DNA of 32,000 nt from Propionibacterium ruminifibrarum (GCF_900289195.1 NZ_OMOH01000003.1:337099-369098), one strand, 5' to 3'. Shown: positions 1 through 30,080, numbered from the stretch's first letter. Made by a program: numbers and translations. Notes: generated from the letters alone by a model not told the origin.

Positions 1-306
1 AAGGTCGCCGAGGACGTCGTGGCGGGCAAGGCCGATCGCGGTGTCGTCGTCTGCGGCACCGGCATCGGCGTCTCGATCGCCGCCAACAAGGTCAAGGGCG
101 CCTACTGCGCCTGCGTCGCCGACGTCTACCAGGCCCAGCGGGCCACCCTGTCGAACAATGCGAACCTGATCGCCATGGGCTCGCAGGTGCTCGGCATCGA
201 GACGGCCAAGGTCCTGCTCGAGAACTACCTGGCCAACGAGTTCGACCCCAACTCGCGCAGCGGCGTCAAGGTCGCGCGTATCCGCGAATACGAGAACGAG
301 CACTGA
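1..306 (+). CDS. rpiB: ribose-5-phosphate isomerase B family (RpiB/LacAB) sugar-phosphate isomerase, 5' end cut by window edge
   Basis: Frame 1 is open from nt 1 (KVAEDVVAGKADRG...). The motif VVCGTGIGVSIAANKV...NANLIAMGSQV is the RpiB/LacAB core. Stop TGA at 304-306. Third codon positions are G/C rich. Confidence 0.85.
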   Translation, partial: KVAEDVVAGKADRGVVVCGTGIGVSIAANKVKGAYCACVADVYQAQRATLSNNANLIAMGSQVLGIETAKVLLENYLANEFDPNSRSGVKVARIREYENEH

Positions 307-333
307 GCGGTGCGGGGAAGCCGGGATCTGGAC

Positions 334-1080
334 ATGAGTGAACCGATCGTCGCGGTGAGTCTCAAGATGTACTTCGAGCGGGCCCGCACGCTCGACTACG
401 CCCGCTCGCTCGTCGAGCTGGTCGGCGCCGAACAGGGCCTGTCCGAGGCCGTGCGAATGGCCGTGCTGCCGGACTTCCTGACCATCGCCGAGGCCGGGAC
501 CATTCTCAACGGCTCGGGCATCGTGCTCGGCGCCCAGGACCTCTGCCAGGACGACCGCGGTGCGCGCACCGGCGAGGTGTCAGGCGCCGACCTGGCGGCT
601 CTCGGCGTCGGGGTCGTCGAGGTGGGCCACGCCGAGCGCCGAACGATCTACCGCGAGGACGATGCGATGGTCGCCGCGAAGACCGCGGCGGCCGTCCGCA
701 ACGGCATCATCCCACTGCTGTGCATCGGTGAGGCCGAGCGCTCCACCGAGGCGGAGGCGGCCGCCAAGTGCATCGCCCAGGTGCGCTCCGCCCTGGCCGG
801 TACCCGGCCGGACGATCTCTGGCTCGGTTACGAGCCCTACTGGGCGATCGGCGCTCCGGCTCCGGCGCCGTCCGAGTACGTCTCGGGCGTGTGTCGTCTG
901 ATCCGCGAGGGTCTCGGCGACGTGCCCGGCCTGAGCCTGCTGTACGGCGGCTCGGCCGGCCCCGGCCTGCTCGGTACGCTCGACCCGGCGATCGATGGCC
1001 TCTTCCTGGGACGCTTCGCCCACGACCCGGCCGCCTTCGTCTCGGTCGCCAAGGAGGCCCGTGACCGCGCGGTGGTCTGA
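334..1080 (+). CDS. triose-phosphate isomerase family protein, divergent paralog (TpiA2/EryH-like tetrulose/erythrulose-phosphate isomerase candidate)
   Basis: The TIM catalytic landmarks are present but non-canonical: VAVSLKMYF (Lys), VGHAERR (His), GYEPYWAIGAPAPA (Glu). The ORF track starts at GTG 310. ATG 334 (MSEPIVAV...) gives the usual short N-terminus. Confidence 0.8.
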   Translation: MSEPIVAVSLKMYFERARTLDYARSLVELVGAEQGLSEAVRMAVLPDFLTIAEAGTILNGSGIVLGAQDLCQDDRGARTGEVSGADLAALGVGVVEVGHAERRTIYREDDAMVAAKTAAAVRNGIIPLLCIGEAERSTEAEAAAKCIAQVRSALAGTRPDDLWLGYEPYWAIGAPAPAPSEYVSGVCRLIREGLGDVPGLSLLYGGSAGPGLLGTLDPAIDGLFLGRFAHDPAAFVSVAKEARDRAVV

Positions 1081-1113
1081 ACGGAGCCGTGACCCGCTTC
1101 TCGAACCCAGACG

Positions 1114-1159
1114 CACTGGCAGGAGCCGCCGGTACCATGCCCGGCGGTTCCTGCCAGTG
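1114..1159. terminator. long GC-rich hairpin between convergent genes (probable bidirectional terminator)
   Basis: CACTGGCAGGAGCCGCCGG (1114-1132), loop TACCATGC, CCGGCGGTTCCTGCCAGTG (1141-1159). This is a 19-bp stem with one G-U pair. It lies between the TIM-like stop (1080) and the GntR stop (1251). There is no U-tract. Confidence 0.55.
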
Positions 1160-1250
1160 CTGCGCACTGTGAGTCCGGTGTTCTTCCTCCCCGAGTGGCG
1201 CTCCGGGGAGATGTCGTCGGCGAGTGAGGCGCCAACGGGTCACGGCGGTG

Positions 1251-1982
1251 TCACATCTGGGCCGTGAGGCGTTTCGTCGCGGTTCTCATGTGGGCCCGCA
1301 TGGCCTGTTCGGCGGCCTCGACGTCGTGTTTCTCGAGTGCCCGCAGGATCTTCTCGTGCTCGCCCAGGGACTCGACGGCGTCGGCCACGCTGCTCAGTGC
1401 CCGATCCATCCAGATGCTCAGCAGGGTGCGGCAGGTGCGCAGCATGTCGGCGGTCAGGGTGTTGCCGCAACTGTCGACCAGGATGACGTGGAAGCGGTAG
1501 TCGATGGGGATGGTCTTCTGCACGTCGGGGAGTGCCTCGCGCATTGATTCGATGTTGTCCTGGAGCAGGCCGATGGCCTGCTCGTCGGCGCGTTCGGCGG
1601 CCAGACGTGCCGCCTCGACCTCGAGTGCCGAACGGACCTCGAGCAGCTGCTGCGTGTCGTGCTCGCCGAGCAGCATGCCCCAGGTCAGCGTCTTGGGCAG
1701 CAGATCCGATGTCGTGCCGCGCACGTACGTGCCCGCCCCGGGGCGCACTTCGACCAGGCCCAGCAGCTCGAGGGCGGCGAGCGCCTCGCGGACGGCCGAG
1801 CGCCCCACCCCCAGCTTCTCTGCCAGTGCGCGCTCCGGCGGCACCCGATCGCCCGTCGACAGGGGGCCGGTGCCGAAGTGAGCCAGCAGGTGCTGAGCGA
1901 CCTCGGCGGCCGTGGTCCCGCGGGGGAGCGTCGACATCTCCTGGAGGAACTCGTCGGCAGGGCCGGATGCGTATGCGGGCAT
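1251..1982 (-). CDS. GntR family transcriptional regulator, FadR/FCD subfamily
   Basis: N-terminal winged HTH: RVPPERALAEKLGVGRSAVREALAALELLGLVEVRPGAGTYV. The C-terminal helical FCD-like domain includes ...HEKILRALEKHDVEAAEQAMRAHM. Divergent from the MFS operon. Confidence 0.85.
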   Translation of the reverse strand: MPAYASGPADEFLQEMSTLPRGTTAAEVAQHLLAHFGTGPLSTGDRVPPERALAEKLGVGRSAVREALAALELLGLVEVRPGAGTYVRGTTSDLLPKTLTWGMLLGEHDTQQLLEVRSALEVEAARLAAERADEQAIGLLQDNIESMREALPDVQKTIPIDYRFHVILVDSCGNTLTADMLRTCRTLLSIWMDRALSSVADAVESLGEHEKILRALEKHDVEAAEQAMRAHMRTATKRLTAQM

Positions 1983-2036
1983 GCCGTCAATCTACTAGGC
2001 GTGACGTGGCCGGTGCCGAGCACGAAAAGATTACAT

Positions 2037-2075
2037 GTTAACCGGTTGACAGGTTTACCGGTGTTCTTCTAATCT
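2037..2075 (+). promoter_or_regulatory. sigma-A type promoter with overlapping palindromic operator candidates
   Basis: -35 TTGACA (2046-2051), 18-nt spacer, -10 TAATCT (2070-2075). The 14-bp near-palindrome GTTAACCGGTTGAC (2037-2050) overlaps the -35. A second ACCGGT palindrome (2057-2062) lies in the spacer. Located 63 nt upstream of GTG 2138. Confidence 0.45.
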
Positions 2076-2137
2076 CGTCCCCATACCGACGCCGCGCAGC
2101 GTTGCGCGAGTCGTCCGAACGATGACGAGGAGGTCAC

Positions 2138-3469
2138 GTGTCGAGTGCTACAACCGTGAACCCGGCTGCTGAGAAGTCGGCGGTTCACAAGATCTCCGTG
2201 CGGCTGGTGCCATTCGTCGCACTGATGTTCTTCATCAACTTCCTCGATCGCACTGCGATCGGTTATGCGGGCCCCAACGGGATGCAGCAGGACCTGGGCA
2301 TGACGGCCGCCCAGTTCGGCCTGGCCTCGGGGGTGTTCTTCATCGGGTACATCATTCTTGAGGTCCCCTCGAACCTGGCGCTGCACCGATTCGGCGCCAG
2401 GGTCTGGCTGTCGCGCATCATGGTGTCGTGGGGCATCGTCGCCGTCCTGTTCACCTGGGTCCAGTCCAGCGGCCAGCTGTACGCCCTGCGTGTCCTGCTC
2501 GGCGTCGCCGAGGCCGGCTTCTTCCCCGGGGCCATCCTGTTCCTGAGCATGCTGGTGCCCTCGCAGCATCGCAGCCGTACCCTCATGCTCTTCTACCTGG
2601 CCCAGCCGCTCACCAGCGTGGTCGGGGCCCCGCTGGCCAGCTGGCTCATCCAGCACCACGGCGCCCTCGGGCTCGAGGGCTGGCGCTTCATGTACCTGTG
2701 CGTCGGCGCTCCGGCCATCATCGTCGGCATCGTCGCCTTCTTCTATCTGAAGGACAAGCCAGAGGACTGCCCATGGCTCACCGCGGAGGAGGTCGCGAGC
2801 CTTCGCACTCAGCTGGATGCCGAGGCTGCGGCCAACAGCGGCGAGAAGGGTGAGAAGAACGTCGTGGCCGCGCTCACCAGTGGCCGGGTGTGGGTCCTCT
2901 CGCTCATCTACTTCGGCTTCATCTACGGCCTGTACGCCCTGAGCTTCTTCCTGCCCACGATCATCAAGGGCTTCGGCGAACAGTTCGGCATCGAGTTGTC
3001 GATCCTCCAGCAGGGCCTGGTCACGGCCATCCCGTACGCCTTCGCCGCCCTCGCCATGTACGTCTGGTCGAAGGACGTCACCCGTCGCGGCCTGCGCAGC
3101 TGGCACATCGCCATTCCCGCCGCCATCGGCGGTGTCTCGATCCCGGTCGCCCTGTTCGTCGGTTCGCCGGTCATCGCCATCGGGGTCATCTCGATCACCG
3201 CCATGTCGATCTTCGCCGTGCTGCCGAACTTCTGGACGCTTCCCACGCAGTTCCTCACAGGAGCCCCCGCGGCTGCCGGCGTCGCCCTCATCAACACGAT
3301 CGGCAACATCGCCGGGTTCTCGGCCGGATACATCACCGGCGCGATCCATGACTGGACCGGCGGCTACACCGTCCCGATGTTCGTCGTCGGCGGCTTCATG
3401 ATCGTGTCCGCGACGCTCATGGTCCTGCTGGCCCGTCGCGGCCAGGTGAGGGTCGCCGACGCCTCCTGA
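2138..3469 (+). CDS. MFS transporter, anion:cation symporter (ACS) family (acid-sugar / tartrate-type permease)
   Basis: GAGGAGG RBS before GTG 2138. About 12 hydrophobic segments. ACS-like N-terminal signature FINFLDRTAIGYA...GYIILEVPSN...RVLLGVAEAGFFPG. Confidence 0.85.
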   Translation: MSSATTVNPAAEKSAVHKISVRLVPFVALMFFINFLDRTAIGYAGPNGMQQDLGMTAAQFGLASGVFFIGYIILEVPSNLALHRFGARVWLSRIMVSWGIVAVLFTWVQSSGQLYALRVLLGVAEAGFFPGAILFLSMLVPSQHRSRTLMLFYLAQPLTSVVGAPLASWLIQHHGALGLEGWRFMYLCVGAPAIIVGIVAFFYLKDKPEDCPWLTAEEVASLRTQLDAEAAANSGEKGEKNVVAALTSGRVWVLSLIYFGFIYGLYALSFFLPTIIKGFGEQFGIELSILQQGLVTAIPYAFAALAMYVWSKDVTRRGLRSWHIAIPAAIGGVSIPVALFVGSPVIAIGVISITAMSIFAVLPNFWTLPTQFLTGAPAAAGVALINTIGNIAGFSAGYITGAIHDWTGGYTVPMFVVGGFMIVSATLMVLLARRGQVRVADAS

Positions 3470-3498
3470 TCGTCAGGGGCCGGGAAACTGGAAAGGAA

Positions 3499-4320
3499 GT
3501 GAGGACAATGGGCCTGGGGATCGGCACCTACGCCCTGTTCTGGGAGTGGTCTGAGGCGGTCGAGCATCCCATCGACCTGACGGGCATGCTCGACGTGGCG
3601 GCCGAACTCGACTGCGATGTCTTTCAGATCTGCGACTACCCGCTCATCGAGACGATGGACGTCCATCAGCTGAACGACATCGCCGCCCAGGCTCGTGGGC
3701 TGGGCCTGGAGCTCGAGCTGGGCACCCGTGGCACACGCTCCGAGCACCTGAACAGGTACCTGGACATCGCCGAGACGCTGGGCGCCCACATGCTGCGCTC
3801 CATGGTGCGCGTGGGCGCCGGCGAACCCACACTCGACGAGTCCCTCGCCTCGGTCCGGGGACTGCTGGCGCGGCTCCACGAGAACGGCGTCTCGATCGCC
3901 TTCGAGACCTATGAACAGCTGCCCAGCGAGCGTCTCGTGCAGTTCGTGACCGATGTCAACGATCCGCACGTCGGCATCTGCCTCGACCCCGCCAACTGCG
4001 TCGCCGGGCTCGAACTGCCCGGTGACGTGATCGGTCGCTGTGCGCCGTACACGCTCAACCTGCACGTGAAGGACTTCGCCTTCACCCGCCAGGCGGGCTG
4101 GGTGGGGTTCACCTACGCGGGGGCGGCGATGGGGGAGGGGCTGCTCGACTTCGACGCCGAGATGAAGGCGGTCCGTCCCCTCGAACGGGGCATCAACATG
4201 ATCGTCGAGCACTGGCTCACCTGGCAGGGCGACCCGAAGTCCACCGTCGCGCTGGAGCGGCAGTGGACACGCCGGAGCCTCGACTACATCCGCAACTACA
4301 TCGAAACCAAGGAGAACTGA
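3499..4320 (+). CDS. sugar-phosphate isomerase/epimerase, xylose-isomerase-like TIM barrel
   Basis: E-D-H-E metal-ligand pattern typical of the family: AFETYE, CLDPANC, NLHVKD, IVEHW. Alternative start ATG 3508. Confidence 0.75.
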   Translation: MRTMGLGIGTYALFWEWSEAVEHPIDLTGMLDVAAELDCDVFQICDYPLIETMDVHQLNDIAAQARGLGLELELGTRGTRSEHLNRYLDIAETLGAHMLRSMVRVGAGEPTLDESLASVRGLLARLHENGVSIAFETYEQLPSERLVQFVTDVNDPHVGICLDPANCVAGLELPGDVIGRCAPYTLNLHVKDFAFTRQAGWVGFTYAGAAMGEGLLDFDAEMKAVRPLERGINMIVEHWLTWQGDPKSTVALERQWTRRSLDYIRNYIETKEN

Positions 4321-4323
4321 ACC

Positions 4324-5178
4324 ATGAGTGAGAACCTGAAGATCGCAGTCGTCGGCGCCGGCGGCAAGATGGGCATGCGCGTGTCCAACAACCTGCAGCG
4401 CACCGACTGGACCGTGTTCTACTGCGAGAACGGTGAGGCCGGGAGGCAGCGCGTGCAGGAGGCGGGCCGCGAGGTCGTGCCGACCGACGATGTCATCGGT
4501 GACGTCGACGTCGCGATCCTGGCCGTGCCCGACGTGGCCCTTGAGCCCGTCACCGCCGACGTCGTCCCCAAGATGAAGTCCGGCGCCATGGTGCTGACCC
4601 TCGACCCGGCGGCGGCCTATGCCGGCCTGCTGACCATGCGCGATGATCTCGACTATGTCGTGGCCCACCCCACGCATCCGTCGGTGTTCCTCGAGCGCCA
4701 CACGCCGGAGGAGTACGCCGACACCTTCGGTGGTGTTGCCGCCCCGCAGAACTCGGTCGCGGCGCTGCAGCAGGGCGACGAGTCGATCAAGCCGCTCGCC
4801 GAGAAGATCATCTCGACCATGTACGGTCCGGTCATCAAGGTCTACTGGACCTCGGTGCACGACCTGGCCGTGCTCGAACCCACCCTCAACGAGACCATCG
4901 GCTGCATGATCGGCCAGTTCCTCAAGGACGCCATCGACGCCACGGTATGCCACACCGACATGGACGAGGCGACCGTGACAGCCATGATCCATGGCCACAT
5001 CTGGATCGCCCTGACCAATGCCCTGCGCGGCTCGAACCCGTTCTCGGACGCCTGCCTGCTGGCCATGGACTACGGCCGCGAGGCCATCATCAAGGACGAT
5101 TGGGAACGCATCTTCAACGATGACGACCTCGACATCGTCATCGCCAAGATGCTCAAGCTCGACAAGGTCAGGCACTGA
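4324..5178 (+). CDS. NAD(P)-binding oxidoreductase (6-phosphogluconate-dehydrogenase-like fold)
   Basis: AAGGAG RBS. N-terminal Rossmann motif KIAVVGAGGKMG. The start lies 3 nt after the upstream stop, consistent with translational coupling. Substrate unknown. Confidence 0.65.
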   Translation: MSENLKIAVVGAGGKMGMRVSNNLQRTDWTVFYCENGEAGRQRVQEAGREVVPTDDVIGDVDVAILAVPDVALEPVTADVVPKMKSGAMVLTLDPAAAYAGLLTMRDDLDYVVAHPTHPSVFLERHTPEEYADTFGGVAAPQNSVAALQQGDESIKPLAEKIISTMYGPVIKVYWTSVHDLAVLEPTLNETIGCMIGQFLKDAIDATVCHTDMDEATVTAMIHGHIWIALTNALRGSNPFSDACLLAMDYGREAIIKDDWERIFNDDDLDIVIAKMLKLDKVRH

Positions 5179-5204
5179 CCGACTGTCGGATCGGCGAAGA
5201 AAGA

Positions 5205-5238
5205 GGGATGGTGGTCTCGTCAAGGAGGCCACCATCCC
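5205..5238 (+). terminator. stem-loop after oxidoreductase gene (terminator or attenuator candidate)
   Basis: GGGATGGTGGTCTC (5205-5218), loop GTCAAG, GAGGCCACCATCCC (5225-5238). This is a 14-bp stem with one G-U pair, 27 nt after stop 5178. There is no clear U-tract. Confidence 0.45.
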
Positions 5239-5305
5239 TATATCCTGTAGGAACTAACCCTATGGTTCGGGCCGCTGGGCCCTCAACGATGAGCACAACC
5301 ATGAG

Positions 5306-7018
5306 ATGGGAGAGACAATGACGTACCTGGTTGGCGAGCCGCTGGATTTCGCGGCTGACAGTCTTGCGGGCTTCGTGGCCGCGCACTCTGATCTGGTCCA
5401 GGCGGTTCACGGTGGCGTGGTCCGCGCCGACGCCTCACCGCAGGGCGAGGTGGCCGTCGTCGTCGGCGGGGGTTCCGGTCATTACCCGGCGTTCGCGGGC
5501 TGGGTTGGCCCGGGCATGGCCCACGCTGCCGTCTGCGGCAACATCTTCGCCTCGCCGTCGGACTCGCAGGTCGTGTCGGTCTCGAGGGCGGCCGACAACG
5601 GCGGGGGCGTCCTGCTGCTGTTCGGCAACTACGCCGGTGACTGCCTTCAGTTCGGCAAGGGTGCCGAGGTGCTCAACGCCGAGGGCATCGCCACACGCAT
5701 CGAGACGATCACCGATGACGTGGCCTCGCGCCCCGTCGAGCAGTGGGCCGAGCGCCGGGGCATCGCCGGTGACTTCTTTGTCGTCAAGATTGCCGGCGCT
5801 GCCGCCGCGGCGGGCTACGACCTCGACGGTCTCGTAGAGGCCACCCGTCGCGCGAACGCAGCCACCAAGACCCTGGGCATCGCCTTCGACGCCCCGACCC
5901 TGCCCGGTGCTGCCGAGCCCCTGTTCACCGTGCCCGAGGGGCACTACGAACTCGGTCTGGGCATCCACGGCGAACCCGGCCTGTCCTCGCACCCGCTGAG
6001 CGGGGTCGATGATATCGCCAAGACCCTCGTCGAGGGCCTCCTCGCCGAGAAGCCTGCCGATGCGCGACGAGTCGGCGTCCTGGTCAACGGCCTGGGCTGC
6101 ACCAAGTACGAGGAGATGTTCGTCCTGTACGGGCGAGTGGCTCGGCTGCTCGAGGCCGCCGGCTTGCAGATCGTCGTCCCGATCGTCGACGAACAGGTCA
6201 CCAGTCTTGACATGGCCGGTGTCTCCCTGTCGGTCTGCTTCCTCGACGACGAGCTCGAGAAGCTCCTGCTCGCCCCGGCTCTGACACCGGCCTACACCCG
6301 TGGCGCCGTTGAACACGGCGGTCCTCGGCGCGAGGTCTCCACCGAGGAGAGCGCCGAGCTGGCGGCCGGTTCGCCGGAGTCGGCGGCGCAGGGCGCCAGA
6401 CTCGCCACGATCGTGGCCCTCATGGCCGAGACGGCCGTAGCCGATGCCGACTTCCTCGGCAGGCTCGACTCCATCGCCGGCGACGGCGATCACGGGCAGG
6501 GCATGGTGCTCGGTTCGCGTGCCGCGGCGAAGGCTGCTGCTGTCGCCTCGGATGCGGGGGCCGGTGCCGCGACAGTCCTGAAGCAGGCGGGTCTGGCATG
6601 GGCGGAAGGCGCAGGAGGCACCTCGGGGGCGTTGTGGGGTCGCGCGCTCGAGGCCGTGGGTGCGGGCCTGTCCGATGACGCGGCGGCCGATGCGGCCACA
6701 GTGATCGCCGCTGTCGCAGCCGGTGCCGAATCCGTGGCTGCCAGCGGCGGCGCCGTGCCAGGCGACAAGACGATGGTCGACGCCACTACTCCGTTCGCCG
6801 TTGCGCTGCGCGATGCCGGTGATGACCTGCCGGGCGCCTTCGCCACCGCGGCCAGGGCCGCCACTGACGGGGCAGAGGCGACCAAGGACCTCGTGGCCCG
6901 CAAGGGCCGCGCCACGACGCACGGCGACGCCTCACTCGGCCATCCCGACCCGGGGGCGATCTCCTTCGCCCGCCACATGACGAGGATTGCTGAGTACCTG
7001 GCCGATCATCAGGCCTGA
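5306..7018 (+). CDS. ATP-dependent dihydroxyacetone/ketose kinase, fused DhaK-DhaL domains (erythrulose kinase candidate)
   Basis: The DhaK-type N-terminal half includes VVGGGSGHYPAFAGWVGPGMAHAAVCGNIFASPS. The DhaL-type C-terminal half includes IAGDGDHGQGM...PGDKTMVD. Alternative start ATG 5318 (MTYLVGEP). Confidence 0.88.
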   Translation: MGETMTYLVGEPLDFAADSLAGFVAAHSDLVQAVHGGVVRADASPQGEVAVVVGGGSGHYPAFAGWVGPGMAHAAVCGNIFASPSDSQVVSVSRAADNGGGVLLLFGNYAGDCLQFGKGAEVLNAEGIATRIETITDDVASRPVEQWAERRGIAGDFFVVKIAGAAAAAGYDLDGLVEATRRANAATKTLGIAFDAPTLPGAAEPLFTVPEGHYELGLGIHGEPGLSSHPLSGVDDIAKTLVEGLLAEKPADARRVGVLVNGLGCTKYEEMFVLYGRVARLLEAAGLQIVVPIVDEQVTSLDMAGVSLSVCFLDDELEKLLLAPALTPAYTRGAVEHGGPRREVSTEESAELAAGSPESAAQGARLATIVALMAETAVADADFLGRLDSIAGDGDHGQGMVLGSRAAAKAAAVASDAGAGAATVLKQAGLAWAEGAGGTSGALWGRALEAVGAGLSDDAAADAATVIAAVAAGAESVAASGGAVPGDKTMVDATTPFAVALRDAGDDLPGAFATAARAATDGAEATKDLVARKGRATTHGDASLGHPDPGAISFARHMTRIAEYLADHQA

Positions 7019-7533: not shown

Positions 7534-7620
7534 AGCGCCATGGCCTCGTTCACACCAGTCGCCGAAACGGGCGGCGGGTTCACCAAGTTTTAGTTCAGCT
7601 ATGTGACAAGGAGGTCCATC

Positions 7621-9000
7621 ATGGCGGGAGAACTGACTTCTCGTGTGGCGCCAGATGAAGCGACCGTGAACAGTGCCCTTGGCAAGGTGACCAAGCATCT
7701 CATCCCATTCCTGTTACTCATGTACGTGATTGCGTTCGTTGACCGGACAAATCTTGGCTGGGCGCAACAGGAATGGGAGGCTAACTATGGGATATCCACC
7801 GCTGCCTACACATTCGGCGCCACTTTGTTCTTCGTGGGCTACGCCGTCTTCGAGGTGCCTTCGAACCTGATCATGCACAAGGTCGGGGCGCGCTGGTGGA
7901 TGACCAGGATCATGATCACATGGGGCATCGTGGCGGCATGCTTCATGTTCGTCCAAGGACCCAAGACTTTTTATGCCCTTCGATTCCTGCTGGGTGTCGC
8001 CGAAGCCGGCTTCTTCCCCGGTGTGATGTTGTACCTGACTTACTGGTACCCTGCTGCCCGCAGGGCATGGGCGACCGGGCTGTTCTACATGGGGCTACCC
8101 ATCGCCAATATGTTCGGGAATCCCCTGTCCGGGAGCCTGCTGGAGCTCGACGGTGTTCTGGGTATGGACGGCATCCACTGGATGTTTCTGGTCGAAGGAG
8201 CATTGGCCGTGGTCGTCGGCATTATCTGCCCGTGGGTTCTCGTCGATCGTCCCAGCAAGGCGTCATGGTTGACTGAAGAGGAGCAGCGGGACCTCACCCA
8301 GCAAATCGAACTCGAGGAAGCGGCAAAGCAAAAGGCCAAGCCGATCAGTTGGGGAAGGGCACTGGCAGATCCACGCATCCTCTATTTCTGCCTGATCTAC
8401 TTCTGCATCCAGGCCTCTGTCTATGGACTTACGTTCTTCTTGCCGAAACAGGTCACCTCGATGACTGGCACGACGGCAGGTTTCAAAGCATCACTTGTCA
8501 CCGCGATCCCATGGGTGGTTGCTCTCATCGGAGTCCTCATTGTCCCCAAAGTCGCTGACCGGCGACAGAACCACCGTTTGCTGTCGGGGCTCATGCTGGC
8601 CTTCTCTGGAATGGGGATCATGGGATCCGCACTGTTTCTTCATCAGCTCGTGCCGGCGCTGGCGCTGCTGTCCATTGCGGCGATCGGCTTCACCTGTGCG
8701 CAACCCATCTTCTGGCAGCTCCCGACCAGGTACCTCAGTGGTGCGGCACTCGCCGGTGCCACTGGCTTGATCAATGCCGTCGGAAACCTGGGCGGTTGGG
8801 CTGCTCCGCTGCTGCGTACTTGGGCGACTCAGAGCGCATTCGGCACCGCAGACAGCCCAAATGAAGCGGCTGGTCTCGTGGTGCTCGGCATGGCGGGTGT
8901 CGTCGGTGTTCTGCTCGTCACCGGACTCAATTTCTTCAAGAAATCAGTAGAAGAACGTGAAGCTCTTTCCCTGCAGAGCGGGGAATCCTTGGACAAGTGA
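7621..9000 (+). CDS. MFS transporter, ACS family (L-rhamnonate/acid-sugar permease candidate, RhmT-like role)
   Basis: Perfect AAGGAGG RBS (7608-7614) 6 nt before ATG 7621. The track start GTG 7603 is unlikely. Signature VIAFVDRTNLGWA...GYAVFEVPSN...RFLLGVAEAGFFPG. First gene of the rhm-like operon. Confidence 0.85.
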   Translation: MAGELTSRVAPDEATVNSALGKVTKHLIPFLLLMYVIAFVDRTNLGWAQQEWEANYGISTAAYTFGATLFFVGYAVFEVPSNLIMHKVGARWWMTRIMITWGIVAACFMFVQGPKTFYALRFLLGVAEAGFFPGVMLYLTYWYPAARRAWATGLFYMGLPIANMFGNPLSGSLLELDGVLGMDGIHWMFLVEGALAVVVGIICPWVLVDRPSKASWLTEEEQRDLTQQIELEEAAKQKAKPISWGRALADPRILYFCLIYFCIQASVYGLTFFLPKQVTSMTGTTAGFKASLVTAIPWVVALIGVLIVPKVADRRQNHRLLSGLMLAFSGMGIMGSALFLHQLVPALALLSIAAIGFTCAQPIFWQLPTRYLSGAALAGATGLINAVGNLGGWAAPLLRTWATQSAFGTADSPNEAAGLVVLGMAGVVGVLLVTGLNFFKKSVEEREALSLQSGESLDK

Positions 9001-9035
9001 ATCATGGAGAATATCTGACAAGGAGGATTGGAAAG

Positions 9036-9818
9036 ATGAAAGAGTATCAGAAGGCTGTATTCCCAGATCGTCACACGGCCGTTGTGAGTGGTGCGGGAGC
9101 ACCTCGAGGGATCGCCCGCAAGACTGCCCACAGGCTAGCCGCCGAGGGCTGGGACATCGTGGTTGTCGATCTTTCCGACAAGGTGTTGGAGTTCGGGGAT
9201 GAACTTGCCCGGGAATATCCTGAGCAAGACTCCCTGGCAATCCAGCTCGACATCTCTGACGAGAATCAGGTGAAAAATGCCTTCGCTCGGATCAAATCGG
9301 AGATGCCGCCCGTGGTTGGTCTTGCAAATATCGCGGGAATTGCCTGTCCTGTGCCGTTGCTCGAACTGGACGCCGCGCTCTTCGACAAGGTTCTGGCGGT
9401 CAACTGCCGCGGCACGATGTTGATGATGAAGTACGCGGCTGAGCATATGAAAGAATATGGGATCGGACGTATCGTCAACTTCTCGTCCATTACTGCTCTG
9501 GATGGCGGAGGCACTTTCTCGAAATTCGCATATGCGGCGGCAAAGGCTGGGGTTCTTGGCATTACCAAGGGTGGTGCTCGAGAACTCGGACCCTACGGCA
9601 TTACAACCAATGCGGTTCTGCCCGGTCCGATCGACACCGACATCATGGGCGGTAAGCTCACGGACGAGCGCAAGAAGCAGATGTCCTCGAACATTCCAGT
9701 GGGTCGTGTCGGCCAGCCCGAGGAGATTGCTGCCGTGGTGTCCTTCCTCCTTTCTGCTGACGCCTCGTTCGTCAATGGCGTCTCGCTGAATGTTGACGGT
9801 GGTAAGCAGATGCACTGA
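9036..9818 (+). CDS. short-chain dehydrogenase/reductase (SDR), classical type
   Basis: AAGGAGG RBS (9020-9026) before ATG 9036. TAVVSGAGAPRGIA (TGxxxGxG-like), NFSSI...YAAAKAG (S...YxxxK catalytic triad), PGPIDTD. The track start 8997 overlaps the upstream stop and is less likely. Confidence 0.85.
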   Translation: MKEYQKAVFPDRHTAVVSGAGAPRGIARKTAHRLAAEGWDIVVVDLSDKVLEFGDELAREYPEQDSLAIQLDISDENQVKNAFARIKSEMPPVVGLANIAGIACPVPLLELDAALFDKVLAVNCRGTMLMMKYAAEHMKEYGIGRIVNFSSITALDGGGTFSKFAYAAAKAGVLGITKGGARELGPYGITTNAVLPGPIDTDIMGGKLTDERKKQMSSNIPVGRVGQPEEIAAVVSFLLSADASFVNGVSLNVDGGKQMH

Positions 9819-9892
9819 GTGGTATCTGGGTGGCGGGTCTTGCCTCAATAGTGCCCGCCACCCGGGGTACCTGAGAAACAGGAGGAGGGATC

Positions 9893-11101
9893 ATGACACT
9901 TCCGACGATCACGGATATCCGTGCTTATTTCATGGGCGGAGCGAGTTCTTCGAGTGGCGGCCAAGGAGGTGGTGATTATCACGATCAAGGATCTGGGCAC
10001 TGGATTGACGATCACATCGCCACTCCGATGAGCAAGTATCCGCAATACGAACAGTCTCGTCAATCATTTGGCATAAACGTGCTTGGTACGCTTGTGGTTG
10101 AGGTCGAGGCAAGTGATGGGACGATTGGGTTCGCTATTTCTACGGCGGGCTTGATAGGCTGTTTCATAGCCGAGCATCATCTATCCAGGTTCCTCATCGG
10201 TCGGCGCGTTGATGACATCAAATTGATTCACGATCAGATGACCAACGCCACGCATTTCTATTCCGGTGGTGGTGGCGTTGTCATCAACACGATCTCATGC
10301 ATCGACTTGGCGCTGTGGGATTTGTTCGGCAAGGTTGTGCAGCAGCCCGTGTACAGCCTGCTGGGCGGTGCGGTGCGAGATGAGATTCAGTTCTATGCTA
10401 CTGGTTCCCGTCCGGACTTGGCACGCGAGATGGGCTTCATTGGTGGCAAGATACCCACGCACTACGGACCGCATGACGGGGATGCGGGAATTCGGGCAGA
10501 GGTGGAGCGGGTCAAGAGGTTCAGGGGTCTGGTGGGGCCAGATTTCTGGCTCATGTTTGACTGCTGGATGAGTCAGGATGTCAATTATGCTGTCAAACTT
10601 GCCCATGCAGTGGCTCCGTTCGGCGTGAAGTGGCTGGAAGAATCGTTCCCGGCTGCGCAATATGAGAGTTATGCTGCTTTGAAACGGCAGATGCCACCAG
10701 GGATGATGGTCACCTCTGGTGAACACACTGGAAACCTTGTCGCGTTCCGAACGTTGAGTGAAACAGGTATCGACGTCCTGCAGCCTGATGTGGGATGGTG
10801 CGGTGGTCTCACCTCGCTCGTGGAGATCGCGGCGATTGCGAAATCAAAAGGGCAACTTGTGGTGCCGCACGGTTCCTCCGTCTACTCCCACCATGCCGTG
10901 ATCACGTTCGTGAACACTCCGTTCAGTGAATTTTTGATGACGAGCCCGGGTGCCGATGAGATCAGGCCCCAGTTCGATCCCCTCCTCGTCAATGAACCCG
11001 TTCCAGTTGACGGGCGGATCAGCAAAGCGGAACTCACGAAACCTGGCTTCGGAGTGGACCTCAATCGCGCATGCCCGCTTGAAAGGCCATTTGTGCACTG
11101 A
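9893..11101 (+). CDS. rhmD: L-rhamnonate dehydratase (enolase superfamily)
   Basis: GGAGGAGGG RBS. Near-collinear with my recollection of enterobacterial RhmD/YfaW: MTLP.I...[45 protein letters not shown]...[16 protein letters not shown]...MVTSGEH...[53 protein letters not shown]. Confidence 0.92.
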
Positions 11102-11103
11102 CC

Positions 11104-11949
11104 ATGGAGAAGCTGATGTCAACTGAAACGAGTCACGTTCCCCTTAACCGATTGAAAGAACGCCTTCGGGTTGGCGATGAACCTCAGCTGGGGTTGTGGC
11201 TGAGCAGTGGCTCACCGGCAATGACGGAGATCGCTGCGGGTGCTGATTTTGACTGGGGGCTCATCGACGGCGAGCACGGGCCCAACGGGATCGAAAGTCT
11301 CCTTGCCCAACTCCGTGCTATCGCTCCTCATCGAACGGCGCCGATTGTACGCCCCGCTGAGACGAGCCGGGTACTTATCAAGCAGATTCTCGACATTGGG
11401 GCACAGAACCTGCTGCTGCCGATGGTTGACTCCCGAGAAGACGCCGAGATGGCTGTCGCGAGTACTAGGTATCCGCCCCGGGGGACGAGGGGAGTGGGAG
11501 CGTCCATTGCCCGAGCAGGCCAGTGGGGCAGGATCAAGAATTACATGATGGAGACCGAAGATCAGCTCTGTGTGATTCTTCAAGTGGAAACTCGCGAGGG
11601 ACTGGCCCACCTTGATGAGATAGTGCAGGTTGAGGGTGTTGACGGTGTCTTCATCGGCCCTGCTGACCTCGGCGCCGCGCTGGGGAGTCCCCCCATCGAG
11701 GAGCTCAACTCCATCGTCTGCGAATGTCTGTCCAAGATCCGCAGGGCTGGTCTCATCGCGGGATCGATCGCGTTGGAGGAGGCCACGGCGCGCACTTACC
11801 TTGAAGCCGGGGCAAATCTTCTTGCGATTGCTTCTGACACTGATTTGCTTGTGCACTCCCTTGATGACTGCAAGAGCAGATTTGCCGATGTCACCACGAC
11901 TCGTGATTCACGTCGAGCTGGCTCAGGAAATAAAAGCGAGAAGGGCTGA
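11104..11949 (+). CDS. rhmA: 2-keto-3-deoxy-L-rhamnonate aldolase (HpcH/HpaI aldolase family)
   Basis: Starts 2 nt after the rhmD stop. LKERLR.G..Q.GLWLSS...DW.LIDGEH.PN...IKQ.LDIGAQ.LL.PMVD...TRYPP.G.RGVGAS.ARA..WGRI.NYM...VEGVDGVFIGPADL matches RhmA/YfaU as I recall it. Confidence 0.9.
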   Translation: MEKLMSTETSHVPLNRLKERLRVGDEPQLGLWLSSGSPAMTEIAAGADFDWGLIDGEHGPNGIESLLAQLRAIAPHRTAPIVRPAETSRVLIKQILDIGAQNLLLPMVDSREDAEMAVASTRYPPRGTRGVGASIARAGQWGRIKNYMMETEDQLCVILQVETREGLAHLDEIVQVEGVDGVFIGPADLGAALGSPPIEELNSIVCECLSKIRRAGLIAGSIALEEATARTYLEAGANLLAIASDTDLLVHSLDDCKSRFADVTTTRDSRRAGSGNKSEKG

Positions 11950-11973
11950 TGTGAATGCTGGGAAGAGCTACTA

Positions 11974-12783
11974 TCAGGTGTCCTGGGGGATCATTCGGCG
12001 TGAGACCATCGCCAGATGGTGGGTCATGGCATGTATGGCTGCAGCCTTGTCGCCTGAACGCACGGCATCGAAGATCGTCTGGTGTTCCCCGATCGCCGTG
12101 GGGGCATCGACCTTGCCCGTCCCACTCGTCTGCCGCATCAAATGAACGCTGAAACCCAAGGAGTTCACAGATCTGTTGATGTACCTGTTGCCGCAGTGAT
12201 TCAGGATCGTCTGGTGGAAGTCCCAGTCGCGATGGTAATAGTTCCAGATCGCCGCTCGGTCACTCATTGCGCCTTCCGCATCGAGCCTGTCTGCTGCTTC
12301 AATGTTGGCGGCAAAAGATGTTTCGAGGTCTGCGACCAGTCCTGGGAGATTTCTGCTCATCGCACGGTCGAGCGCGCTCGTCTCCATGATGAGCCTGGCC
12401 TCAATCAGCTCGGACATCTGCGCCGCTGACATCGGCGGGGCGACCCGATAACCGCGGTTCGCCATGCGCCGCACCAGTCCCGTGTCCTCGAGCCTGGCCA
12501 AGGCCTCCCTCACTGGTGTCTGCGACACCGCGAGATAGCGCGCCAGTCCATCGATCGTGAGCGGCGAGTTCGGTTCGAAGGACCCTGACGTGAGCATGTC
12601 CAGCAGAGCGTCGTAGACGTCGTCGCGTAATCCTCGCGGCCGGATGGGCCTCAGCTGGGGCATCTCTAGGTCGGGGCTGCTGCTCATGGGCCGGATCATA
12701 TCCAGCTGTTCAGGAACCAAGCTGTCTGCGCGCTGTGCCCGGACTGTTGCCCACGATTCCGCGCTGGCCAGAACCCAACTCAT
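11974..12783 (-). CDS. GntR family transcriptional regulator, FCD domain (paralog of 25311-26036)
   Basis: HTH LTIDGLARYLAVSQTPVREALARLEDTGLVRRMANRGYRVAPP. FCD part DWDFHQTILNHCGNRYINRSVNSLGFSVHLMRQT. Convergent with rhmA. By alignment with the paralog the true start may be ATG 12687 (MSSSPDLEM...). Confidence 0.85.
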   Translation of the reverse strand: MSWVLASAESWATVRAQRADSLVPEQLDMIRPMSSSPDLEMPQLRPIRPRGLRDDVYDALLDMLTSGSFEPNSPLTIDGLARYLAVSQTPVREALARLEDTGLVRRMANRGYRVAPPMSAAQMSELIEARLIMETSALDRAMSRNLPGLVADLETSFAANIEAADRLDAEGAMSDRAAIWNYYHRDWDFHQTILNHCGNRYINRSVNSLGFSVHLMRQTSGTGKVDAPTAIGEHQTIFDAVRSGDKAAAIHAMTHHLAMVSRRMIPQDT

Positions 12784-21571: not shown

Positions 21572-21656
21572 CGTCTCATGACGTCCGACCAACGGTGATC
21601 GGACGGGAGAGGACCAGATGTACACGGCTGATGCATGGCCCATCGCCTGCAAGATG
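21557..21656 (+). repeat. copy B of duplicated promoter / 5'UTR / first-13-codon segment (copy A at 7281-7377)
   Basis: See copy A. Same block order, with indels between the blocks. Confidence 0.8.
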
Positions 21657-22553
21657 AACTTCGGACCACTCGCCGAGGACGGCACCCCCATCGCGGAGGC
21701 CCCGCTGGAGATCTGGCGGGATCAGCTCCTCCAAGTCGCCGAACTGGGGTTCAAGCACTTCGACCCCATGGACGACTGGATCCCCCTCGCCGACATCAGC
21801 GAGGAACGGTTCGCACAGTTCCAAGTGCTGCTCGACGAGACCGGCCTGGCCTGCCCGGCCATGTCGATCGGGCGGAACAGCGTCATCGATGCGGACAGGG
21901 GTGATGAGAACCTCGCGCTCGTGCACCGCACCATCGACAGGGCCTCGGCGCTCGGCGCCACCATCGTCAACATCGGCTTCCAGCAGGAGCTCACGGAGCC
22001 CCAGAAGGAGGCGTTGTGGTTCTGGCTGGCTGACGGGCACCACGATGACCCGGGGTTGTATGACCTCGCAGTGGAGCGGGTCAGGGAACTCGCTGACCAC
22101 GCCCAGCGTCTGGGCCTGCAGATCAGTCTGGAGATGTACGAGGACACGTTCATCGGCACCGTCGACGGTGCTCTGCAGTTCCACCATGACGTTGATCATC
22201 CTGCTGTCGGGATCAACCCCGACCTGGGAAACCTGATCAGGTTGCACCGGCCCATGCCGAAGGGTGAGGAGATGTACGAGAGACTTCTTCCGCTCTCGAA
22301 CTACTGGCACATCAAGAGCTACATCCGCGACGAGGATGACGTCACCGGTGCGTACATGTCAGCGCCCGTGCCGCTCAAGTACGGCGTCGTGAATTACCGA
22401 GCGGTGATCAGACGGGCAATCCAAGTGGGATATGACGGCCCCTTCATGACCGAACACTATGGCTCGGATTGGCTTGGGGTGGGCGCCGAGAACGCTGAAT
22501 ACATCAGGCAGGTCTTGAGGGGAGCCTTGCGCTCTTTCGGGCGTGACAAGTAG
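21618..22553 (+). CDS. sugar-phosphate isomerase/epimerase, xylose-isomerase-like TIM barrel (UlaE/SgbU/EryC-type fold)
   Basis: E-D-H-E ligand pattern: SLEMYED, GINPDLGN, YWHIKS, MTEHYG. 311 aa. Confidence 0.78.
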   Translation: MYTADAWPIACKMNFGPLAEDGTPIAEAPLEIWRDQLLQVAELGFKHFDPMDDWIPLADISEERFAQFQVLLDETGLACPAMSIGRNSVIDADRGDENLALVHRTIDRASALGATIVNIGFQQELTEPQKEALWFWLADGHHDDPGLYDLAVERVRELADHAQRLGLQISLEMYEDTFIGTVDGALQFHHDVDHPAVGINPDLGNLIRLHRPMPKGEEMYERLLPLSNYWHIKSYIRDEDDVTGAYMSAPVPLKYGVVNYRAVIRRAIQVGYDGPFMTEHYGSDWLGVGAENAEYIRQVLRGALRSFGRDK

Positions 22554-22801
22554 TTTCCATGAGGAATCTTTGCTGGGGTTCGATCGCGAGGCAACCCGGG
22601 TGGAGACGGGTTGAGGGGGAAGATCCATGAACGGGTGGCTGGCCTGACGCGCCGTTGGATTCTTGTCGGCAAGCCATCTTGGGTCTGGAGGGCGACGATG
22701 CCCACCAATTGAGTGATTGTGGCCGATGGTCACGGTGTGAAATCTTGGCGTGAGCCTTGGGTTGTGCCTCATTCGTGGGACGCAACAACTTCTATCGCTG
22801 T

Positions 22802-22820
22802 GGGCGCAGTTTTTGCGCCC
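22802..22820 (+). terminator. terminator-like hairpin 250 nt downstream of the isomerase gene
   Basis: GGGCGCA (22802-22808), loop GTTTT, TGCGCCC (22814-22820), followed by the T-rich ATTTCCCCTGTTGATTCTGTT. Confidence 0.45.
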
Positions 22821-22870
22821 ATTTCCCCTGTTGATTCTGTTCGTTCAAGTATGCAAACAAGGAGTTTTCG

Positions 22871-23878
22871 GTGAAGACAATCAATAGTGTAACCGTTGTC
22901 GGCGCAGGGTACATGGGCGGTGGCATCGCTCAGAGCTTGGCCCTGGCCGGTATGAAAGTCACTGTCGTCGACGGTGACCCCGAACTGACGAAGAAGCAGT
23001 TCGCCCGGCTGCTCTCCGAGGCTCAGGATTTTGAGGATCAAGGGCTCTACAAGCCGGGGAGTGTCGAAATCATCAAGGCGAATCTCGTCTGCGGCACAAC
23101 CATTGAGGAGGCGGTCGGTGACGCGGATTTCATCGAGGAGGCAGTTTTCGAGAGGCCGGATGTCAAGATGCCCGTTCTTGAACGGATCTCGACACATGCT
23201 CGTCCTGATGCCATCATCGGAACGAACACGTCGACCATTCCAGTGCACGTTCTGGCGCCGGCGGTTGACCATCCTGAACGGTTCATGACGGTGCACTTCT
23301 CCAACCCGGCGCCGTTCATTCCAGGGGTGGAGTTGGTCGTGGGTGAGGCGACGACCCCTGAGACCGTCGCCCTCGTCAAGGATGTGCTGAAGCGCTGTGG
23401 GCGGCAAGGGGCCCAAGTCGCCGACCGTCCCGGAATGGTCCTGAACCGTCTGCAATACGCCCTGCTCAAGGAGGCGACTGCGTGCGTCGAAGAAGGCGTT
23501 GCGACGCCCGAGGACGTTGATGTCATCGTACGGACAACCTTTGGCTTCCGCTTGGGCTTCTTCGGCCCCTTTGCCATTGCTGACCAGGCTGGTTTGGATG
23601 TCTATGCCAACTGCTTCAAGACCTTCGAGGAAGCCTATGGGTCCCGGCTTGCCACCCCGAAGATGCTCTCCGATGCGGTCGCTGCCGGCCGCCTGGGCGT
23701 CAAGAACGGCAAGGGAATCACCGGAGACTTCGATGACGAGACCAAGACAGCCCTGATCGCCTATCGCAACAAGGCGTACGCGCGCATGTCGGAGCTTCTC
23801 GCCGAACTCGGCCCCGCTCCCGAGGGAGTCAAGGTCGACGATCGGGATCAGTTCGAGGCGTTACATCCTCAGGAGTGA
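22871..23878 (+). CDS. 3-hydroxyacyl-CoA dehydrogenase family oxidoreductase (L-gulonate 3-dehydrogenase-like candidate)
   Basis: AAGGAG RBS before GTG 22871. Rossmann motif VTVVGAGYMGGGIAQ. HFSNPAP...PG.V.NR pattern of the HADH family. C-terminal dimerisation domain present. The stop overlaps the MFS start region. Confidence 0.8.
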   Translation: MKTINSVTVVGAGYMGGGIAQSLALAGMKVTVVDGDPELTKKQFARLLSEAQDFEDQGLYKPGSVEIIKANLVCGTTIEEAVGDADFIEEAVFERPDVKMPVLERISTHARPDAIIGTNTSTIPVHVLAPAVDHPERFMTVHFSNPAPFIPGVELVVGEATTPETVALVKDVLKRCGRQGAQVADRPGMVLNRLQYALLKEATACVEEGVATPEDVDVIVRTTFGFRLGFFGPFAIADQAGLDVYANCFKTFEEAYGSRLATPKMLSDAVAAGRLGVKNGKGITGDFDDETKTALIAYRNKAYARMSELLAELGPAPEGVKVDDRDQFEALHPQE

Positions 23879-23883
23879 TGATC

Positions 23884-25310: not shown

Positions 25311-26036
25311 TCAGGGTTCAGCGGGAGCATCCGACAGGCAGCGACCCAAAACCTTGTTGAGGTGCCCGGTCATCGCATCGGCCGCTGCATCCGGGTCGCC
25401 GGTGCCAACGGCATCGAGGATCGCAGAGTGCTCCTCGATCGCGAACGGGGCGTCACTGACCTGCGTCCCGAGAGTCTGGCGCATGCGGTGCACGCTGAAT
25501 GACAGTGAGTTGACAGCCCGGCTCAGGTATCGGTTGCCGCAGTGGTCGAGGATCGCCTGGTGGAACATCCAATCCGATTCGAAATAGCGCTTGACCTGGG
25601 AGGGATCCTCAAGGGCATGCGGTTCGGCCATCTTGGCGGCCCATTGTTTGTGAGTGGTGAAGGCGCTTTTAAGTGATTGGAGCAAGGCCTCGGAGTCGCG
25701 CTGCATGGCCCGGTACAGGGCGCTCGGCTCCAGGACGAGACGGGCGTCCACGAGTTCGGTGATCTGATCACGTGACATCGGCGGGGCGACCCTGTACCCA
25801 CGATGCGCCTCGCGGGTGACCAGACCGGTGTGTTCCAGGCGCGCCAGAGCCTCCCTGACCGGGGTGGGGGACACCGACATCGACTTGGCGAGGCCATCGA
25901 TCGACAGGGGCGAGGCCGGGGGGAGCTGTCCGGCGAGGAGGACTTCCAGAATGGCGTCGTACACCTCGTCGCGTAGCCCATGAGCAGACAAGGGATTGAA
26001 GCCGGAAAGCCCCTCAGCCGCTGATTTCATGGCCAC
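25311..26036 (-). CDS. GntR family transcriptional regulator, FCD domain (paralog of 11974-12783)
   Basis: LSIDGLAKSMSVSPTPVREALARLEHTGLVTREAHRGYRVAPPMS...DWMFHQAILDHCGNRYLSRAVNSLSFSVHRMRQT is collinear with the other GntR. Confidence 0.88.
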   Translation of the reverse strand: MAMKSAAEGLSGFNPLSAHGLRDEVYDAILEVLLAGQLPPASPLSIDGLAKSMSVSPTPVREALARLEHTGLVTREAHRGYRVAPPMSRDQITELVDARLVLEPSALYRAMQRDSEALLQSLKSAFTTHKQWAAKMAEPHALEDPSQVKRYFESDWMFHQAILDHCGNRYLSRAVNSLSFSVHRMRQTLGTQVSDAPFAIEEHSAILDAVGTGDPDAAADAMTGHLNKVLGRCLSDAPAEP

Positions 26037-27636: not shown

Positions 27637-27937
27637 GTCTGCTCCTCATGCCGGATCCGTTGCGAGGTTACCCGGGATGGCGGTGTCGACGGCGTCCGTG
27701 GGGCGGGTGGCAGAGGTCTCACTCGTGGCGAACGGTCAAGGGATGGCATCGGGTGGCCAGGCGAGATGGCGAAGCCTAATCTGAACTCCATCGTCGCGGG
27801 CATCCGGTACCGCACGCGTTGGCGCTGGAAGTACCGGTATGACCACCAAAAATGTCATACTGACAGGGTCCGTTCGCGGCACAGGTACGGCCGAGGGAAG
27901 ATCCCCCAGGCGTACTGGACCAACAGAAAGGCAATCC

Positions 27938-30043: not shown

Positions 30044-30080
30044 CAGCCCCGACATCTGAACCAGAGGAGATAGAAAGAAC

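Follow-up and report, generated by a model that had tools for sequence, protein, structure and literature searches.

Which compound is consumed by a gene set in which a permease of the anion type stands beside a kinase of the dihydroxyacetone (DHA) type? The question is raised by a stretch of 32,000 nucleotides from Propionibacterium ruminifibrarum (GCF_900289195.1 NZ_OMOH01000003.1:337099-369098), hereafter called the window, which lies on contig C21 of a complete-quality genome of 2.78 Mb and 69% G+C. ORF calls and profile search confirmed all seven open reading frames (ORFs) that the original prediction had placed at the start of the window: the 3′ part of rpiB, a TIM paralogue, a GntR gene, an MFS permease, a xylose-isomerase-like barrel, an oxidoreductase and a fused Dak1-Dak2 (DAK) kinase. 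That prediction had taken them as one single module, serving either an erythrulose or tetritol pathway or a variant of tetronate breakdown. Instead, the window starts with the tail of one operon, the rpiB-TIM pair (plus strand) that ends at 1080 and faces the GntR gene (minus strand, 1251-1982), and continues with the whole of a second operon, the GntR gene being divergent from a block of permease, barrel, oxidoreductase and kinase genes (plus strand, 2138-7018). The gene set probably constitutes an oxidative pathway for D-apionate, the acid derived from the plant cell-wall sugar apiose, with a decarboxylase of the xylose-isomerase family. This enzyme series, ApnO-OiaC-LerK-EryH-EryI, is listed as route 3 of D-apionate catabolism (PMC13753588).

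The oxidoreductase is assigned to the D-apionate oxidoisomerase family

The oxidoreductase gene (4324-5178, plus strand) encodes a protein of 284 aa, whose C-terminal domain matched PF16896 with 163.6 bits against a cut-off of 25 in a profile search and whose N-terminal Rossmann part gave KARI_N and NAD_binding_2 matches. The best structure match was PDB 5T57 (E=6e-59), the sequence of which is that of a Cupriavidus necator N-1 gene lying within a cluster of GntR, MFS, apnO, RuBisCO-like protein (RLP) and DUF1537 genes, and which we take to be the characterised enzyme F8GV06. Independent support for this identity comes from the 15 residues mutated in AaApnO, all of which align to the 5T57/C. 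necator sequence at one constant offset, 14 of them being identical. The roles of such residues in metal, coenzyme and substrate contacts have been described for AaApnO (PMC13753588). In the window protein, D70, D94, H115, H118, E185, E190, H225 and S241 correspond to AaApnO D68, D92, H113, H116, E183, E188, H222 and S239; all eight are kept, and they are invariant across 66 aligned sequences. F135, F240 and C244 match the pocket residues F133, F238 and C242. At the remaining pocket positions (AaApnO numbers), V225 is replaced by I, while S187>N, F218>M and L226>A are changes of a kind seen throughout the subfamily.

According to a quick tree, this subfamily comprises actinobacterial, Pantoea/Erwinia and Salinisphaera proteins and stands apart from the rhizobial and Cupriavidus enzymes. 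In the Pantoea/Erwinia group, which is 55% identical to the window protein, JGI gives one member the name D-apionate oxidoisomerase; a search started with the Pantoea homologue returned matches only in Pantoea/Erwinia. Within the genus, the window oxidoreductase shows 98% identity to the Propionibacterium australiense protein and 93-95% to those of two further Propionibacterium species. In the phylum at large ApnO is rare, with 2 of 300 genomes sampled. On the basis of the domain match and the active-site residues, we assign the protein to the D-apionate oxidoisomerase (ApnO, EC 1.1.1.421) family and not to the tetronate dehydrogenases.

A probable decarboxylase and predicted erythrulose-phosphate enzymes

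Immediately upstream, the barrel gene (3508-4320, plus strand, 270 aa) matched PF01261 in the profile search. The protein is 50-54% identical to seven proteins to which JGI gives the automatic name 3-oxoisoapionate decarboxylase, and residues E134, D161, H187 and E235 of its metal site (numbering from codon 3505) are invariant. An alignment-based model (pLDDT 95.5, compared with 42 for a single-sequence prediction) had a fold like that of metal-dependent ketose 3-epimerases, in which the E-D-H-E site would suit the stabilisation of an enediolate after loss of CO2. None of the closest solved structures exceeded 19% identity, an NCBIfam search gave no match, and we found no curated model or solved structure for OiaC with which the barrel could be compared. 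The barrel is probably an OiaC, judging by its homologues and its position. We also considered that it might be a hydroxypyruvate-isomerase family protein of the OtnI type, which we rejected: the OtnI model NF043033 did not match the barrel at E<=0.001, and it did match other loci of the same genome, below cut-off.

The fused ATP-dependent kinase (5318-7018, plus strand, 566 aa), the sole fused DAK in the genome, passed the cut-off of NF011049 (666 bits, cut-off 492) and stayed under that of the glycerone kinase model TIGR02361 (345 bits, cut-off 575). Its GGSGHYP motif, seen in 44 of 46 motif matches, is that of M. smegmatis LerK (sequence from the supplement of PMC10733421), whereas the PTS-type DhaK of the genome carries GGSGHEP. 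By hand count, 84 of 133 N-terminal residues (~63%) are identical to M. smegmatis LerK. Motif and identity indicate that the enzyme is probably an erythrulose kinase of the LerK type.

The TIM paralogue (334-1080, plus strand; PF00121, 166 bits) keeps the catalytic triad K11, H99 and E167, and the unusual motifs SLKMY and WAIGAPAPA pointed out by the original prediction are indeed present. The housekeeping tpiA is located elsewhere, in a gap-pgk-tpi operon on contig C32. The match to NF000722 was 159 bits, short of the cut-off of 293, and PDB 11EF was matched only with E=6e-33. TIMs of the SLK type occur in 46 of 65 ApnO loci, and in two others (L010 and L106) the same slot is occupied by a TIM of the SWKMN type, the type of the characterised LerI. 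Because of this slot equivalence, the SLKMY-type TIM is a probable functional equivalent of LerI/EryH. Its best structural relative is PDB 3S6D, a ‘putative triosephosphate isomerase’ of fungal origin that shares its motifs, so that this type is not confined to bacteria.

Only the 3′ part of rpiB (PF02502; 1-306, plus strand) lies inside the window, the gene starting 132 nt to the left of its edge. The RpiB paralogue, a second copy beside the housekeeping RpiB (contig C18), keeps the catalytic CGTG motif and has GCDPN and LSNNA where the housekeeping protein has GADH and QHND, replacements also seen in Rhizobium DerI and M. smegmatis DerI1. It shows SNN in place of HN, the histidines present in the host RpiB being absent. 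The histidine missing from RpiB proteins of the DerI type is the ring-opening one. The score against NF051858 (rhizobial DerI), a model that is clade-specific by name, was 130, below the cut-off of 240. LerI and DerI jointly convert L-erythrulose 1-phosphate into erythrose 4-phosphate (PMC10733421). Motifs and context thus mark the kinase, the TIM paralogue and the RpiB paralogue as predicted erythrulose-phosphate enzymes.

Conservation of the module, its permease and its operator

In a comparison of genome neighbourhoods, the module genes recur in 62 ApnO loci: the barrel, which adjoins the apnO-family gene, in 58, TIM in 45, GntR in 44, RpiB in 43, DAK in 39 and MFS in 30. The arrangement GntR / MFS-DAK-RpiB-TIM-barrel-apnO was found in Microbacteriaceae, Dactylosporangium, Glycomyces, Mycolicibacterium, Pantoea, Erwinia and Pseudomonas. 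The permease (2138-3469, plus strand, 443 aa) belongs to the ACS family of MFS proteins (TIGR00893, 258 bits, below cut-off). It is 61% identical to the MFS protein encoded directly upstream of apnO-RLP-DUF1537 in C. necator N-1 and 67% identical to the permease of the Pantoea/Erwinia module, and it is probably a D-apionate (aldonate)/H+ symporter.

The divergent GntR gene encodes a FadR-type protein of 243 aa (PF00392 and PF07729). The palindrome noticed at 2037-2062 in the original prediction proved to be real, its conserved part being the 14-bp operator GTTAACCGGTTGAC at 2037-2050 (no strand), with a degenerate second half running to 2062. Of 37 homologous GntR intergenic regions, 35 contain the core AACCGGTT, where shuffled sequences lead one to expect 0.1, and GTTAACCGGTTGAC is unique in the genome at <=1 mismatch. 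The operator overlaps a TTGACA -35 box (2046-2051), and a TAnnnT -10 box follows 18 nt downstream (2070-2075). This arrangement of operator and boxes is kept in four Propionibacterium species, and module and operator are conserved across Actinomycetota. A promoter scan made no call at 2046-2075, so that the promoter proposed there rests on conservation. Binding of the GntR protein to this site, over the -35 box, would repress the operon. The operator was also looked for upstream of rpiB-TIM and was absent, which by sequence places this pair outside the GntR regulon. We found no description in the literature of a FadR-type repressor with a GTYAACCGGTTGAC operator; the two would provide a ready regulator-operator pair for actinobacterial apionate loci.

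The isomerase pair belongs to a neighbouring operon

To the left of the window edge, a SorC-type regulator gene (minus strand) is followed by MFS, DUF1537 kinase and pdxA genes, a hairpin and rpiB (plus strand; L001:9713-15306), making rpiB the fourth gene of an MFS-DUF1537-pdxA-rpiB-TIM operon. The statement that OtnK is not present therefore holds inside the window only, since the DUF1537 kinase gene (PF07005 and PF17042) lies 1.3 kb outside it on the same strand as rpiB and, together with pdxA, stands directly upstream of rpiB. The kinase scored below the cut-offs of the DtnK and OtnK models. In a metagenome scan, the DUF1537 gene retrieved close relatives only. A second, divergent DUF1537-family gene is present on contig C19 (L102:7963-9402) and has no pdxA or otn neighbours.

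In other Propionibacteriaceae genera, MFS-DUF1537-pdxA-rpiB-TIM forms a unit of its own, with or without apnO and with either type of TIM. The DUF1537-pdxA-rpiB-TIM unit occurs in the absence of ApnO in two genomes (G066 and G122) and far from apnO in a third (G117). In genome G165 both operons occur and each brings an isomerase pair of its own; the window RpiB shows 75% identity to the copy in the DUF1537 operon and 41% to that in the apnO operon. In G021, the same RpiB-TIM type (80% and 67%) faces apnO and DUF1537 is missing. Within the genus, a close TIM orthologue is found in exactly the four ApnO-positive genomes, and so is the DUF1537 operon. Both descent, as judged from these identities, and transcription would thus assign the rpiB-TIM pair to the left operon. 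Most likely it also serves the apnO operon, since the genome contains no other isomerase candidate; DUF1537 and PdxA alone would yield dihydroxyacetone phosphate (DHAP) from a tetronate and would need neither isomerase.

In two congeners (L003 and L004), a 5-kb insert carrying a SorC-type regulator gene, a class II aldolase-like gene and PTS fructose-type components sits exactly between TIM and GntR, that is, between both operons, which supports the view that these are separate units. A G+C-rich hairpin between pdxA and rpiB (L001:14750-14815) has outer arms, GGTTGAC/GTCAACC, that equal the operator half-sites in reverse arrangement. It is kept in P. australiense and not in the other two Propionibacterium species, and it is probably a processing or attenuation stem.

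Proposed pathway and the question of the substrate

By analogy with the reactions published for homologues, D-apionate would be imported by the ACS permease and oxidised at C2 by ApnO with NAD+, a hydroxymethyl shift giving 3-oxo-isoapionate, from which the barrel would remove C1 as CO2 to leave L-erythrulose. The fused DAK would form L-erythrulose 1-phosphate, the TIM paralogue would turn it into D-erythrulose 4-phosphate, and the RpiB paralogue would produce D-erythrose 4-phosphate, which would enter the pentose phosphate pathway (a transketolase is present in the genome). Acting at the operator that covers the -35 box, GntR would repress permease-oiaC-apnO-lerK. Having no isomerase pair of its own here, the apnO operon would rely on the rpiB-TIM pair that ends the neighbouring SorC-controlled DUF1537-pdxA operon. 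The pairing of an anion permease with a DHA-type kinase, described as odd by the original prediction, is real, but it is accounted for by the published apionate pathway: the acid enters, loses CO2, and the remaining tetrulose is phosphorylated.

Several loci connect the module to an apionate lactonase (ApnL). A member of the same family (L105) has the exact window order MFS-barrel-apnO-kinase, an ApnO of 72% identity and, upstream, an ApnL-like gene. In an Arcanobacterium locus (L122), whose barrel, ApnO and kinase are 62%, 63% and 60% identical to those of the window, a PF25837+PF25838 lactonase is encoded; in both, the same operator precedes the lactonase unit. A Pseudomonas locus (L123) contains the complete set together with an apiose-type dehydrogenase of the Gfo/Idh/MocA family, a DUF2291 ABC system and a lactonase, and lactonase homologues lie in the same loci also in Plantibacter and others. 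Among 201 Propionibacteriaceae genomes searched with NF049900, strong ApnL-like matches were obtained in 8 of the 20 ApnO-positive and 1 of the 181 ApnO-negative genomes, with scores below the equivalog cut-off and among related genomes that are not independent; seven of these matches lie within 8 kb of apnO.

A number of observations weigh against D-apionate. ApnL is absent from this genome (best E=0.013, and nothing found with three actinobacterial queries), and so is a close apiose dehydrogenase, ApsD-like matches reaching only 24-32%. For these two reasons no way is visible by which the cell could produce apionate from apiose; in their first description, routes 2 and 3 begin at D-apionate itself (PMC13753588). 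The oxidoreductase shares no more than 38-40% identity with the characterised C. necator-type enzyme, falls in a separate, well-supported ApnO subfamily in the quick tree and carries the S187>N, F218>M and L226>A substitutions, and an F218A variant of AaApnO is inactive (PMC13753588). The OiaC label of the barrel, a probable one, draws on automatic names and synteny. The window TIM is of the SLKMY type, whereas the characterised M. smegmatis and Brucella-type LerI are of the SWKMN type, and the rpiB-TIM pair descends from an operon type, DUF1537-pdxA, that exists without ApnO. Finally, AaApnO is similarly efficient in the oxidation of D-ribonate, L-lyxonate, D-erythronate and L-rhamnonate (PMC13753588). 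Because of this breadth and of the missing lactonase, the substrate in vivo is a matter of inference, for which D-apionate is the best and a likely candidate, with linear pentonates as its main rival.

The D-ribonate-type genes and alternative substrates

A further module in the window bears on this rivalry. At 21618-25158 (plus strand), Pfam matches identify an AP_endonuc_2 isomerase, a 3-hydroxyacyl-CoA-dehydrogenase (3HCDH)-family enzyme and an MFS protein, followed by a convergent GntR gene (25311-26036), with no kinase or RpiB of their own. The 21618 protein matched M. smegmatis 5TNV with 412 bits; from this match and the context, the genes are named as a probable D-ribonate upper pathway (OrnI/Rib2D-like). 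Of 9 genomes of the genus, 6 contain them; the same genes share an operon with DAK-RpiB-TIM in one locus (L101) and flank DAK-RpiB-TIM in two others (L010 and L109). Route 3 genes can lie close to D-ribonate genes as a ‘metabolic funnel’ to erythrose 4-phosphate (PMC13753588), and a D-ribonate-type module 15 kb away fits this described funnel.

A joint reading, which we put forward tentatively, would make of these parts a funnel with three inlets to erythrose 4-phosphate that share one kinase and one isomerase pair, some of its parts being undescribed, namely the role of the barrel and the DUF1537-pdxA-rpiB-TIM route. Here the OiaC-like barrel may be a decarboxylase for linear 3-oxo-pentonates (from D-ribonate and L-lyxonate) in a lineage that has lost the apionate lactonase. 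The SorC / MFS-DUF1537-pdxA-rpiB-TIM operon may phosphorylate a five-carbon acid, which oxidative decarboxylation would then turn into an erythrulose phosphate; we found no paper on such a C5-acid route.

Less probable, and in our judgement unlikely, is that the same enzymes mainly use linear 2R,3R pentonates in host-associated propionibacteria, the barrel being a 3-oxo-pentonate decarboxylase. L-lyxonate would be converted through 3-oxo-L-lyxonate into L-erythrulose, with all five enzymes employed, and D-ribonate into D-erythrulose, with TIM skipped. The kcat/Km of AaApnO is 195 for L-lyxonate and 274 for D-ribonate per min per mM, LerK is reported to accept both erythruloses (PMC13753588), the D-ribonate-type module without its own kinase is 15 kb away, and ApnL was found neither in this genome nor in three ApnO-positive congeners. 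However, an apionate lactonase does occur in those nearest outgroups that share gene order and operator, characterised ApnOs have a lower Km for D-apionate (0.13-0.27 mM; PMC13753588), and D-ribonate is already covered by the separate dehydrogenase-isomerase pair.

The tetronate route, second option of the original prediction, would lead from D-erythronate through 3-oxo-erythronate to CO2 and dihydroxyacetone, which the kinase would convert into DHAP. This chemistry is possible as a side route, given that AaApnO and DhaK produce DHAP in vitro from D-erythronate via spontaneous decarboxylation (PMC13753588), and the permease is an anion transporter; as the main function it is very improbable. 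The oxidoreductase is of the ApnO family (PF16896, 164 bits), the barrel is not an OtnI (NF043033), the motif of the kinase is that of LerK, a PTS DhaKLM being encoded separately in the genome, and the RpiB and TIM paralogues would be needless, yet both travel with the module. The DUF1537-PdxA pair that adjoins the module is reportedly the known pathway for both D-erythronate and D-threonate. Under the published specificity rule, the configuration of L-threonate is the wrong one for ApnO (PMC13753588). Poorest of all stands the tetritol form of the first option, in which the oxidoreductase would turn erythritol or threitol into erythrulose: M. smegmatis employs the same trio of kinase, TIM and RpiB in its use of tetritols, and DAK-TIM occur without ApnO in a congener (L100), but the oxidoreductase carries the metal- and carboxylate-binding residues of ApnO, the permease is of the anion type and the ApnO loci have no polyol dehydrogenase conserved among them. 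What stands of that option is the erythrulose-phosphate trio; no tetritol dehydrogenase belongs to the gene set, and in the D-apionate pathway that we favour erythrulose would come from an imported acid after decarboxylation. The trio may also accept erythrulose from an unlinked dehydrogenase.

Other genes of the window and related loci

Downstream of the kinase, the region 7603-12783 is lower in G+C (55-58% versus 65-72%) and encodes an MFS protein, a short-chain dehydrogenase/reductase (SDR), an L-rhamnonate dehydratase (NF011968, over cut-off), a RhmA-like aldolase and a GntR protein. Rhamnose and apiose are linked in rhamnogalacturonan II (RG-II). A functional tie of the module to these L-rhamnonate genes was considered and is unsupported outside the genus (3 of 62 loci); it is only in the four Propionibacterium species, but in all of them, that the block comes after the kinase. 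Its SDR (9036-9818) is 58% identical to an SDR of Brachybacterium that has a homologue of the 21618 gene on one side and one of the 22871 gene on the other (L010:1091-4006), which suggests that the SDR and these genes once formed one module, later rearranged in this genome. At 27839-31207, a pyruvate-formate-lyase-like glycyl radical gene (734 aa) is followed by that of a radical-SAM activase; with the gene end as called, its Gly_radical domain was matched over 65 of 106 positions only.

In a congener without ApnO (G072; L100:7101-13773), a fused DAK (62-64% to the window kinase), a SWKMN-type TIM and an RpiB are encoded near an FGGY kinase cluster. The erythritol route of P. freudenreichii could not be reconstructed (PMC4437456), and by its predicted gene content this cluster is a candidate for it. 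On contig C25 (L068:1318-7526) we found an acid-sugar cluster with genes for a metallo-beta-lactamase-fold protein, a UPF0261 protein, a class II aldolase, an ACS-type MFS protein, a Hyi-like isomerase and a DeoR regulator. We rejected this group of genes as a hidden otn cluster: the Hyi-like and class II aldolase matches were both below cut-off, with no kinase or dehydrogenase beside them.

Comparison with known systems

The locus represents a known pathway, in its probable reading, in a new host and split over two operons, a layout already in the literature, where EryH-EryI are often apart from ApnO-OiaC-LerK (PMC13753588). Its significance is modest: a published plant-sugar-acid pathway is extended to host-associated, anaerobic propionibacteria.

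Of the tetronate pathway LtnD/DenD-OtnI-OtnK-OtnC (Zhang et al. 2016, via PMC13753588), the proposed scheme shares the import of an acid sugar, a 3-oxo acid and beta-decarboxylation; it differs in a barrel without OtnI match, in another dehydrogenase family and in its product, a tetrulose rather than DHAP. The M. smegmatis tetritol pathway LerK-LerI-DerI1 (PMC10733421) and Yarrowia EYK1-EYL2-EYL1 (PMC9835291) likewise lead from L-erythrulose to D-erythrose 4-phosphate, and the M. smegmatis enzymes resemble those of the window in kinase motif and N-terminal identity and in the DerI-type RpiB motifs, whereas the locus is without a tetritol dehydrogenase and has SLKMY in place of the SWKMN of M. 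smegmatis LerI. With the M. smegmatis D-ribonate pathway (Luo and Huang 2018, via PMC13753588), the window has in common the similar isomerase and dehydrogenase genes at 21618-23878, which would share its only fused erythrulose kinase and RpiB; they lie 15 kb from the module and are not part of it. The closest counterpart is D-apionate route 3 (Carter et al. 2018, as ‘route 3’ in PMC13753588), with which the locus shares all five enzyme families, the ApnO active site, an acid-sugar permease, a start at the acid and not at apiose, and an isomerase pair apart from apnO-oiaC-lerK. In contrast to it, the host here is actinobacterial, the ApnO subfamily is 38-40% identical to the structurally studied enzymes, the isomerase pair would be borrowed from a DUF1537-pdxA operon, the genome has no lactonase, and the predicted repressor is of the FadR type.

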